Part shown: positions 44,170 through 47,100 of the stretch, one piece after another
Numbering within the stretch: the stretch's first letter is position 1
Layout: every line of letters starts with the position of its first letter
Assembly: GCA_964291625.2 (NCBI GenBank)
Contig: OZ220089.1
Location: forward strand, 704,001-768,000
DNA length: 64,000 nt
Direction: 5' to 3'
Source of the DNA: Candidatus Latescibacterota bacterium
GTDB lineage: Bacteria > Latescibacterota > UBA2968 > UBA8231
Notes under the pieces: model-generated
The model's database searches: none
Told to the model about the DNA's origin: nothing
Seen by the model: the letters and a program-made list of their open reading frames with translations, nothing else
Made by a program: the position numbers and the translations under genes

Positions 44170-47100
44170 GGCGCCGGCTCCTCCAGCAGCCACAGGTAGG
44201 AGTCCTCCAGGGTCGGCGTCGCTTCCGTGGCCCCGGGCAGGGGCCTCTCGGCGGCGAGGAGGCGCACGCGGATGCGGTCCTGGTCGCGCATGTGGTGGAC
44301 GATCCGCGCCGACCGGCGCAGCTCCTCGAAGCCGGCTTCCGTGACCGACGCCTGCCACACCGAACCGCGGGTCAGATCGACCATCTCCTGGGGCGTCCCC
44401 AGGAACCGCACCTCGCCGCCGTCGAGCACCGCCAGCCGGTTGCAGGAGCTGGAGATGTCCTCGATGATGTGGGTCGAGAACACCACCACCCGGTCGCGGG
44501 CCAGCTCGGCCAGCAGGTTGCGGAAGCGGATGCGCTCCCACGGGTCGAGGCCCGCCGTGGGCTCGTCGACCACCAGGATGCGCGGCAGGTGCAGCAGGGT
44601 CTGGGCGATGCCGACGCGCTGCTTCATCCCTCCCGAGAACCCGCCGATCTTCTTGTCGCGGCTGTCCTCCAGGTGGACGGCGGCGATCGCCTCCTTCACC
44701 GCCCGGCGCCGGCCGCCGGCGTCCCACCGCCCCTTCAGCATCGCCTGGTAGTCGAGGAACTGGTACGCCGTCATGTTCTCGTAGGTGCCGAAAGCCTGGG
44801 GCAGGTAGCCGATCAGGGCCTGCAGCTCCTCGCGCCGCGATGACAGGTCGATGCCGTTGACCCGCACCTTGCCCCGCGTCGGCTCCAGGATGCCGCAGAG
44901 GACGCGCATGAGGGTGGTCTTGCCGGCGCCGTTGGGGCCGATGAGGCCGAACATGCCGCTCTCTATCTCGAGGGAGGCCCGCTTCAGCGCCGGGAAGGGC
45001 CGGCGGCGCCGGCCGATCAGGGGCAGGGCGGCCACGAGCCGGTAGAGCATGCGGCGGGCCCCCCGGAAGCGGCCGGCCAGGCCGTCGACGTTGACCTCGC
45101 CGCGGTAGAGCCGGCGGGCCCCGCGGTGCACGGCGGCCCCGAGATACCAGAGGACCCCCACCAGGATGGTCAGGGCCCAGTTGTCCCAGCGCTGCTGGTA
45201 CCACAGCAGGTGGGGAACGGGCAGCAGCCAGAACAGGGTCGACCAGAGCCCGCGCACCAGCCGCTGCCTCCGGCCCTCCGGCGGCGGCAGCAAGGGGCGC
45301 ACGGCGGCGGCCAGGAAGATGACGAAGGCGACGGAGAACACCATCGCCCAGAAGTCGCTCTCCAGGTAGAGGTAGGCGAAGTAGAAGTGGAAGGCGAGCA
45401 GCGGCAGCTGCCAGCGCAGGGGCCCCGGGCCGGCGGCCTCGGGCTCCCCCGCCGCCCGCAGACGCGCCCGCTGCCGCTCCCCCCGGCGCCACTGGCGCAG
45501 GAAGCGCGGCTCCTCGTCGTAGACCTTCACCAGGTTGGCCACCGAGATGCGCAGGGACTCGCCGCGGGGGATCGGGTCGGCGCGGCTGCGCCGCAGGCTG
45601 GTCTGCAGGAACCAGGTCAGGGCCGGGACCCCGCCGAGCAGGGCGGTGGCGTCGACGGCCCGCCACAGGAGGCCGTCCACGTGCTCGTGGATCAGCCAGG
45701 CTCCCAGGGCCAGCGCCGCCAGCTGGGCCGCCCAGGTCCAGCCGCCGAGGCCGCGCAGCCAGGCCAGGGTGTGCTCCAGGCCGGCGTAGACCGCGGGCAC
45801 CAGGACCAGGGTGAAGAGGGTCCCCGCCAGCAGGCCGCCGATGACCGCCACGGCGAAGGGCACGCCGATGACCGCCACGTACTCGGCCTTGCCCATGGCC
45901 AGGGGCAGCAGCGCCAGGATCGTGCTCAGGGCGGTGATCGCGATCGGCCGCAGGCGGGCCTGGCCGGCCTGCAGCAGGGCCCGCGACAGGCGCGCCCCCC
46001 GGCGCTGCCGGGCGCGGGCCGAGTCGATGAGCATGATGCCGTTGTTGACCACCACGCCGAGGAGGATCACGAAGCCCACGAGGGCGTTGGCGTCGAGGAT
46101 GGAGTTCCCCGTCAGGACCAGCCCCCACAGCCCCCCCACCGTGGCCAGGGGCAGGGCGATCATCATCGCCAGGGGCGCCACCAGGGACTCGAAGACGGCG
46201 GCCAGGATCATGTAGATGAGGACCACCGAGGCGGCGAGGAGGAAGTAGAACGGCTCCAGGTCGGTCTCGTCGCGGACGACCTCGACCGAGACCCCCGACG
46301 GCGGCGACACCGCCGCCGCCAGCTCGTCGACGGCGGAGCGCCCCTCGGCCAGCAGTCCCGCCGAGTCCCTCACCTCGTCCTGGAACCGGTAGCGGACCTG
46401 CAGCTCCTTCTCCTGGTTGACCCGGGCGATGCGGGCGCTGCCACTGGTGTACGCGAGGTCGGCCAGCCGCGGCAGGGGCACCGATCCGCCGCCCTCGGCC
46501 GGCACCTGCACCCGCCGCAGGTCCTCGATCCGGCGCTCCCCCGGCTCGCCGCTGCGCAGCAGGACCTCGACCTCCTCCGCGCCCCGCCGCACCCGCGCCG
46601 GCGACGACACCTGCGGCTGGAAGCCGGCCAACTCCCCGGAGACGGCCTCCTCGGTGACGCCGTGGTGCCTGAGGGCGGCCCGGTCGAGGAACAGGGAGAT
46701 CTCCGGCTGGGACGGCTCCTCGGCCGCCCAGGCGTACTCGACGGCCGTCAACCGCTCGAGGTTGAAGCGCAGGTCGTCGGCCACGCGGCGCATCAGCTCC
46801 ATGTCGCCCCCCCGGAGCACGAGGCGCTCGCCGCCGCCCCCGATCCCCAGCAGGCGGGCGAAGGCCCCCTCCATGGCGCCGCCGCCCCCGCCGCCGCCGA
46901 ACCGGCCGCCGCCGCGGGGCGCGTCGAAGGTGAACCACAGGGCCGGGAAGGCCTCCCTCAGCTCCTTGGACACGTCCTCGCGCACCTGGCCCAGGCCGCG
47001 GCCGGCGACCTTCCGGTAGTCCTCCCGCAGGCGCAGGTCGAGGCGCAGGAGGTCGGGCTTCACGTCGATGCGGCGCTCCTCCAGCTCCTCCACCTTCGCC

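Follow-up and report, generated by a model that had tools for sequence, protein, structure and literature searches.

The window analyzed here is a stretch of 64,000 nucleotides (nt) from a Candidatus Latescibacterota bacterium (NCBI GenBank assembly GCA_964291625.2, contig OZ220089.1, positions 704,001 to 768,000 of the forward strand). It carries a tightly packed cassette of seven genes, all on the reverse strand, which encode, in this order, a free ATP-binding cassette (ABC) ATPase, a large permease, an outer membrane factor, an adaptor, a plain resistance-nodulation-division (RND) protein (RND1), an RND-ABC fusion protein (P0001) and a small permease (Table 1). The large permease, RND1, the fusion and the small permease each start in an overlap with the preceding gene (ATGA, TGATG, GTGA and GTGA, respectively). 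The subject of this report is the fusion protein, in which the nucleotide-binding domain (NBD) of the ABC part is interrupted, directly after its putative first β-strand (β1), by four predicted membrane helices.

Table 1. Features of the efflux cassette and of the fusion gene, in window coordinates (aa, amino acids; ORF, open reading frame; GC3, third-position GC; TM, transmembrane helix, primed for the extra helices of the fusion; H, helix in model numbering; pLDDT, predicted local distance difference test; K+R, lysines plus arginines).
Feature	Position (nt)	Strand	Basis and remarks
Small six-helix-type membrane protein, 234 aa	43465..44169	(-)	Predicted ABC-2-like permease; GTG start overlaps fusion stop (GTGA)
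RND-ABC fusion gene (P0001, 1558 aa)	44166..48842	(-)	ORF, Pfam, GC3; GTG start overlaps RND1 stop (GTGA)
NBD core, β2 to C-terminus, aa 1282-1558	44169..44999	(-)	Walker A at nt 44913-44939
Basic connector TM6' to NBD, aa 1247-1281	45000..45104	(-)	Conserved strand-like motif, no strand in either model
Four-helix membrane insert TM3'-TM6' (predicted), aa 1140-1246	45105..45425	(-)	Model H111-130, H134-155, H163-190, H193-217
Basic cytoplasmic helix (predicted), aa 1113-1130	45453..45506	(-)	After β1; model H84-101; K+R 14 in aa 1084-1139
Displaced NBD strand β1 (predicted), LRISVANLVKVY, aa 1097-1108	45519..45554	(-)	Ends in A-loop-position tyrosine Y1108
Linker helical hairpin TM1'/TM2' (predicted), aa 1034-1087	45582..45743	(-)	After RND TM12; model H5-25, H29-58, pLDDT 88-94
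AcrB-type RND body (RND2), aa 1-1029, 12 TM	45756..48842	(-)	TM4 Asp and TM11 Arg kept
Plain RND paralogue RND1, 1045 aa	48839..51976	(-)	Pfam, synteny
Membrane fusion (adaptor) protein, MFP	51976..53043	(-)	Pfam, synteny
Outer membrane factor, OEP family	53052..54509	(-)	Pfam, synteny
Large permease: ABC-2-like membrane domain, large soluble part, Golvesin_C-like end	54541..57888	(-)	
Free ABC ATPase, 296 aa, normal contiguous β1	57885..58775	(-)	

From its N-terminus, P0001 comprises the RND body (ACR_tran, PF00873; Pfam E 1.1e-146, 490.6 bits), two extra helices, the strand LRISVANLVKVY, 173 residues with four long helices, and the NBD (ABC_tran, PF00005; aa 1286-1430, E 1e-28, 101.1 bits against a gathering cut-off of 25). 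Exactly 173 residues (1109-1281) separate LRISVANLVKVY from PFPALKRASLEIESG, which begins at aa 1282 (nt 44999). This layout had been proposed from the letters of the DNA before any search was made (hereafter the sequence-only reading), and its particulars hold: the coordinates given for the fused strand (45554-45519) and the insert of about 173 residues are exact to the base, the insert follows directly upon the A-loop tyrosine, with Y1108 closing the strand, and the ATPase of the free gene begins at MRIEIQGLTKRYRGGFHALRDVDLEIGSGMFGL, at nt 58775 of the reverse strand. A contiguous β1 with its A-loop aromatic directly before β2 is not found in the NBD of P0001, where the position colinear with the tyrosine of the free ATPase is an arginine.

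The ATPase motifs of the fused NBD are intact. In all 38 aligned modules, the GxxGxGK core of Walker A, the Q-loop Gln, the signature SGGMKQR, the Walker B DE, the D-loop, the H-loop His and the β1 Tyr are invariant, and so are several Trp and Pro residues of the extra helices. The position of the insert is conserved across 235 aligned homologous modules, in which the column of the β1 tyrosine holds Y in 233, F in one and a gap in one, and the length of the insert is 155-197 aa in all modules except one.

The six extra helices, 20-30 residues long overall, were predicted by AlphaFold2 at aa 1034-1054 and 1058-1087 (linker) and at aa 1140-1159, 1163-1184, 1192-1219 and 1222-1246 (insert, 20-28 residues each). 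No Pfam family was found for aa 1030-1301 at E up to 10, and a search of the ESM Atlas with the membrane part returned no usable match. The three predicted outer loops, of 2-3 residues each (aa 1055-1057, 1160-1162 and 1220-1221), contain no Lys or Arg in P0001, against 14, 3 and 12 in the three cytoplasmic segments; averaged over the 235 sequences of the family, the counts are 13.9, 3.3 and 12.2 for the cytoplasmic segments and 0.2-0.3 for the outer loops, a charge bias that, judged from sequence, follows the positive-inside rule. On a Hessa-type hydrophobicity scale, TM2', TM4' and TM6' are clearly hydrophobic (family medians of 2.0, 0.8 and 0.4), the references being -2.5 to 2.9 for the RND helices of P0001 and 10-17 for the best windows of soluble parts. 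With a marginal and a strongly hydrophobic helix in each, the pattern fits three helical hairpins. On these predictions the insert looks membrane-embedded, in line with the sequence-only reading, which had described it as membrane-spanning and joined to the RND body by two further TM segments; the four insert helices and the charge bias support the former claim, although hydrophobicity is only marginal in three of these six helices, and for the latter two helices with pLDDT 88-94 are modeled after RND TM12.

It is nevertheless possible, if unlikely, that the insert is not a true TM bundle, in which case some of its helices would be re-entrant or lie at the surface and the module would serve as a peripheral anchor or regulatory domain. 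TM3' and TM5' of P0001, with 7.5 and 7.0, score well above the RND helices, a Kyte-Doolittle window flagged just one of the four insert helices, and the outer loops are very short; these points are countered by the length of the helices, by their pairing in hairpins with strongly hydrophobic partners and by the charge bias over the whole family. The linker hairpin TM1'/TM2' (45582-45743) and the hairpin TM3'/TM4' (45351-45425) share the pattern Q-L...Y..(V/L)(D/E)S..W and are paired by hhalign over 29 columns (probability 49%, E 1.7e-4). The profile similarity is weak and serves as no more than a lead that the linker hairpin may have been duplicated to give part of the insert.

That the strand before the insert behaves as strand 1 of the NBD and completes its sheet, as the sequence-only reading would have it, is supported by a comparison of two AlphaFold2 models. 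In the full model (aa 1030-1558, 38-row alignment, mean pLDDT 81.3, predicted template modeling score (pTM) 0.61), only one of three β1 candidates, the segment before the insert, takes strand form (model residues E70-76 and E78-81, at a pLDDT of about 81). All 50 rows listed by VIA-align for this model are solved ABC domains (Z 22.3-24.6) that align from model residue 54-69, with stand-alone NBD chains aligning from their own residue 1-4; MJ0796 (3tif_A) has 219 of 230 residues aligned (model 69..456, chain 1..230), and FtsE (8hd0_A) 212 of 218 (model 69..452). In the control model, from which the strand is absent (start at aa 1138, 41-row alignment, mean pLDDT 82.6), the segments after the insert are coil or helix, none of them a strand, and the β2 region has no strands either; pLDDT there is 63 (72-73 in the full model), and 72, 71 and 59 in the antiparallel β subdomain (85, 82 and 74 in the full model). 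Each of the 50 control superpositions begins at model residue 140-146 (aa 1277-1283), with the chains seen before now entering at residue 11-19 and the matched chains losing their first 11-16 residues: from the full to the control model, the range changes from 1..304 to 14..304 for 4yer_A, from 2..239 to 14..239 for 1vpl, from 2..236 to 13..236 for LptB (4p33_A) and from 2..241 to 13..241 for 4rvc. In the models, a β1 slot of about 12 residues is thus filled only by aa 1097-1108.

Single-chain models cannot separate packing in cis from packing in trans, and the 173 residues and four helices between β1 and the NBD core would permit a strand swap, by which β1 completes the NBD of a neighboring fusion subunit and the membrane detour acts as a dimerization clamp; we consider such a swap quite improbable, since in the AlphaFold2 model the domain is completed in cis, at a pLDDT of about 81. 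Very improbable indeed is that the strand before the insert is a relic or unrelated, with an NBD that lacks β1 or uses a segment after the insert (aa 1246-1256 or 1266-1277). The former segment carries a conserved strand-like motif with an invariant G and R, the latter is colinear with β1 of the free ATPase, and phmmer pairs aa 1271-1281 with the end of β1 of ABCA3 NBD2. The two models, however, form no strand from either segment, not even the control that lacks the strand before the insert; the β1 slot is empty in all 50 control superpositions, the F of the motif after the insert is the majority residue in only 60-80% of the modules as against 99% for Y1108, and hhalign detects no similarity between the regions before and after the insert (probability 0.2%). 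Both candidates were rejected on the two models, the control superpositions and hhalign.

Throughout the 15 bins of 300 nt from 44200 to 48699, one single frame has a third-position GC of 0.96-1.00, which places the junction and the insert in the coding frame of both domains. In two further public runs, DNA contigs match positions 44920-46300 without gaps and with 39-50 substitutions. One contig of a metatranscriptomic library, 521 nt long, matches 45278-45798 and, by its extent, spans the RND end, the linker helices, β1 and the start of the insert; as evidence of transcription it is weak, because RNA libraries can contain DNA. Breaks of contigs at 44900-44950 fall on Walker A words that are common to many ABC genes and have no meaning. 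Near-identical DNA (about 88-99%) for 43900-46300 occurs in sponge and marine metagenome runs, one metatranscriptomic library included.

A search with aa 1030-1558 returned 120 best matches that all carry both PF00873 and PF00005; 113 of these are 1522-1621 aa long. Identity among the 120 is 52-98% over 95-100% of the query, and the named sources among the 120 are Gemmatimonadota, Zixibacteria and Latescibacteria. The same layout is present in the isolates Prolixibacter bellariivorans ATCC BAA-1284, Marivirga tractuosa, Draconibacterium mangrovi and Parabacteroides massiliensis. RND body and module share one open frame at 20 of 22 loci, the exceptions being one cut by a contig end (L007) and one with broken frames (L024). 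Searched by itself, the membrane part (250 residues) has matches at E ≤ 1e-10 in 72 of the 168 genomes from the window's phylum (29 of the 52 of high quality; 24 of 49 genera), and in only 2 of 301 genomes sampled evenly from the phylum of genome G003, G003 itself included. The distribution is therefore wide but patchy, and patchiness is seen in Bacteroidota, Latescibacterota and their relatives. A search among shorter proteins yielded for the most part fragments from short contigs (Bacteroidales, Aminicenantes, Spirochaetales and others); most of these proteins, 330-923 aa long, are encoded on 2-5-kb contigs or bear the name 'partial', and a few (P0182, P0197, P0238 and P0127) lie on long contigs. 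Seven genes considered as stand-alone split modules (L033, L041, L043, L049, L052, L071 and L076) turned out to be ordinary free ATPases. In P0137 (678 aa, on a 2.7-kb contig), the first 140 or so residues resemble the small permease and are joined directly to the linker helices and the split NBD; this may be an alternative fusion or a chimeric assembly. That P0001 itself is an artefact, an RND gene fused with an ABC gene by a lost stop, a frameshift or a chimeric contig, is hardly credible and already refuted by conservation; the sequence-only reading had argued against a lost stop from the ordered architecture. Nothing was found in support of an artefact, the short database proteins being mostly from short contigs or named 'partial', and it is opposed by the single frame, the gap-free independent contigs, the retention of fusion and insert among the best matches, and a layout shared with isolate genomes and with many genomes of the phylum.

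The gene of the small permease directly follows the fusion at 22 of 23 loci, the remaining locus (L027) stopping at a contig edge. The protein is well conserved; its hits to the ABC2_membrane profiles of Pfam are not significant (E 1.3 and 3.1), and no NCBIfam match was found. A gene similar to it adjoins an ordinary free ATPase at locus L071. A model of the complex between the module and the small permease has an ipSAE of 0.62 (runs 0.67, 0.61 and 0.62), and the best of three controls has 0.00; the mark applied to this score is reached by 58 of 80 solved complexes and by 2 of 110 mismatched pairs. The runs agree in at least 84% of contacts, and the pLDDT of the partner is at least 74. Confident contacts involve residues 284-349 of the NBD side (Q-loop and helical subdomain), together with residues 79 and 385, and on the small permease the N-terminal helix 6-21, a conserved loop 81-97 and the C-terminal residues 230-234. 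The model supports binding of the small permease to the NBD at the Q-loop groove, the classical mode of permease-NBD docking.

The order OEP-MFP-RND1-fusion-small permease is kept at 20 of 23 loci; of the others, L007 and L027 are cut short and L026 is without an OEP match. In all five other genomes examined, the free ATPase and the large permease lie directly upstream of these genes. The module occurs once in the genome of the window, where the free ATPase is the paralogue closest to the fused NBD (48% identity over module residues 246-526). The large permease begins with an ABC-2-like membrane domain (Pfam E 4.8e-4), which is followed by about 850 further residues and ends in a Golvesin_C-like domain (E 5.2e-10); the remainder belongs to no family, and in Marivirga the gene is split into two ORFs (L088 and L090).

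Two RND paralogues are encoded together with one adaptor at 20 of 23 loci and in the window, and MdtB is the best solved match to TM8-12 of the fused paralogue, RND2. Under the residue numbering of the AcrB proton relay, the TM4 Asp and the TM11 Arg are present in all 21 RND2 and all 20 RND1 sequences, while the relay's second Asp and its Lys are missing from both paralogues. The position of the TM10 Lys is Asn in 21 of 21 RND2 and 19 of 20 RND1 sequences (Ser in L008), and an Asp follows this Asn in 10 of 20 RND1 against none of 21 RND2 sequences. The idea that the relay was lost in RND2 alone was rejected, because both paralogues keep the same residues and lack the same residues, and there is thus no indication that proton coupling was abandoned in the fused paralogue alone.

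Elsewhere in the window, a stretch of lower GC content (28389-41463; 0.57-0.60 in the GC profile of 38000-41500, against 0.70-0.76 in the efflux cassette) encodes the R subunit of a type I restriction system (32341-35292) and, at 35222-40057, a protein of 1611 aa that combines a YgjP-like metallopeptidase domain with a NACHT-type NTPase; it looks like a defense island adjoining thymidylate synthase (42615-43451). Two giant ORFs are located at 8465-15856 and 15931-21405, the first encoding 2463 aa with fibronectin-III and cadherin-like repeats and the second 1824 aa with many WD40 repeats and Big_1 domains.

When compared with known systems, the NBD of P0001 is, by sequence, closest to the ABC-2/ABCA-type (type V-like) ATPases. 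Its best sequence matches are the NBDs of ABCA3, ABCA4, ABCA1 and ABCA7 (E 5e-55 to 2e-49), and matches are also found to TM_1403 (4yer_A; E 6e-34, Foldseek E 1.4e-16, VIA Z 24.6) and to NosF (E 7e-28), the last two sharing with P0001 a C-terminal extension of the NBD. The top NCBIfam models are DrrA (TIGR01188) and GldA (TIGR03522), for both of which P0001 stays below the cut-off (168.0 bits against 312.45 and 166.1 bits against 402.6, respectively). Unlike in P0001, β1 is contiguous in DrrA, GldA, NosF, 4yer and the ABCA NBDs, none of which is fused to an RND protein. The only insertion at this point of the fold that we could document is that of CFTR NBD1, a regulatory insertion of about 40 residues between β1 and β2 (PMC7039865). 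The insertion point is the same as in P0001, but the CFTR insertion is soluble, flexible and regulatory, whereas that of the P0001 family, of 155-197 residues, is predicted to hold four membrane helices, and its strand also comes after membrane helices. The split-NBD layout, which the sequence-only reading had called unlike that of standard NBDs, was not found in any solved structure, and the literature searched, mostly at the level of listings and abstracts, holds no description of an RND-ABC fusion or of a membrane-split NBD. The predicted topology of P0001 is unprecedented among ABC ATPases and RND pumps.

The RND side of the cassette resembles pumps of the MdtABC type, whose operons likewise contain an adaptor and two different RND genes, and for which RND heterotrimers (MdtB2C) are known (PMC8277102); the part of that article examined makes no mention of an RND-ABC fusion. 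It differs from them in that one RND paralogue carries six extra helices and an ATPase, and in that the cassette further includes two ABC permeases and another ATPase. ABC-2 systems such as NosDFY pair a separate ATPase with a six-helix permease. The docking predicted here, through an N-terminal helix and a conserved cytoplasmic loop of the small permease on the Q-loop groove of the NBD, is comparable, but the ATPase appears to be membrane-anchored, and its small permease has no significant match in Pfam or NCBIfam.

We consider it likely that P0001 contains an ABC-2-type ATPase that is stitched into the membrane, tethered to an RND subunit and working with its own small permease. The C-terminal 529 residues would constitute an ABC-2/ABCA-like ATPase whose chain crosses the membrane in mid-domain: after RND TM12, two helices would lead to a cytoplasmic β1 with the adenine-stacking tyrosine position, four further helices would follow, and the chain, back in the cytoplasm, would build the rest of the NBD. 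With β1 folded back onto the NBD sheet, as predicted in cis, the ATPase would be complete, yet stitched to six helices and an RND subunit. Its docking groove (Q-loop and helical subdomain) would be taken by the translationally coupled small permease, and the two together would form one half of an exporter of the ABC-2 type, tethered to a pump that consists of RND protein, adaptor and outer membrane factor. The ABC part may pass its substrate from the cytoplasm or the inner leaflet to the RND part, which would expel it.

The order of the parts, their conservation, the complete set of ATPase motifs and the operon structure are established from sequence; the packing of β1, the membrane embedding and the docking of the small permease are predictions, as is all of the structural support. 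Several points weigh against this interpretation. TM1', TM3' and TM5' are marginally hydrophobic (family medians of 6.4, 3.9 and 5.1 on the above scale). The packing of β1 was deduced from alignment ranges and not from contacts, the full and control models come from one network that knows the NBD fold, their alignments differ (38 and 41 rows), their pTM is 0.59-0.61, and the linker at model residues 101-110 has a pLDDT of 54. The predicted docking of NBD and permease resembles that of solved ABC complexes and may pass by likeness, and none of the confident contacts in the complex model joins the small permease to the six extra helices. No analysis made here lends support to an energetic coupling of the ABC part to the RND part.

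Two arrangements would reconcile the dimeric ABC with the trimeric RND organization. Two fused subunits may combine with one RND1; alternatively, a single fused subunit may be present, its NBD paired with the free ATPase and the small and large permeases forming the membrane pair. The latter pairing is attractive because the upstream gene pair is conserved. As the A-loop strand is suspended between membrane helices placed directly after RND TM12, ATP binding may, speculatively, couple to movements of these helices. A more far-reaching and, in our judgment, rather unlikely proposal is that the displaced β1 is a mechanical link, by which the RND proton cycle would open and close the ATP site, or the membrane domain of the RND part would be pulled upon by ATP binding. 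In that case the whole cassette would act as one export machine that draws on both proton-motive force and ATP, perhaps with a fused and a free ATPase paired beneath a mixed trimer of RND proteins.

Few protein folds have been studied as thoroughly as ABC domains, which are treated as compact soluble modules, and RND pumps are taught as purely proton-driven. If the prediction made for P0001 is true, the NBD fold tolerates a topological split at the β1-β2 loop, and the family would provide a natural handle on the contribution of the A-loop strand to ATP binding. The bacteria that carry this unstudied seven-gene envelope export system would then possess one in which the two main bacterial efflux classes are physically joined.

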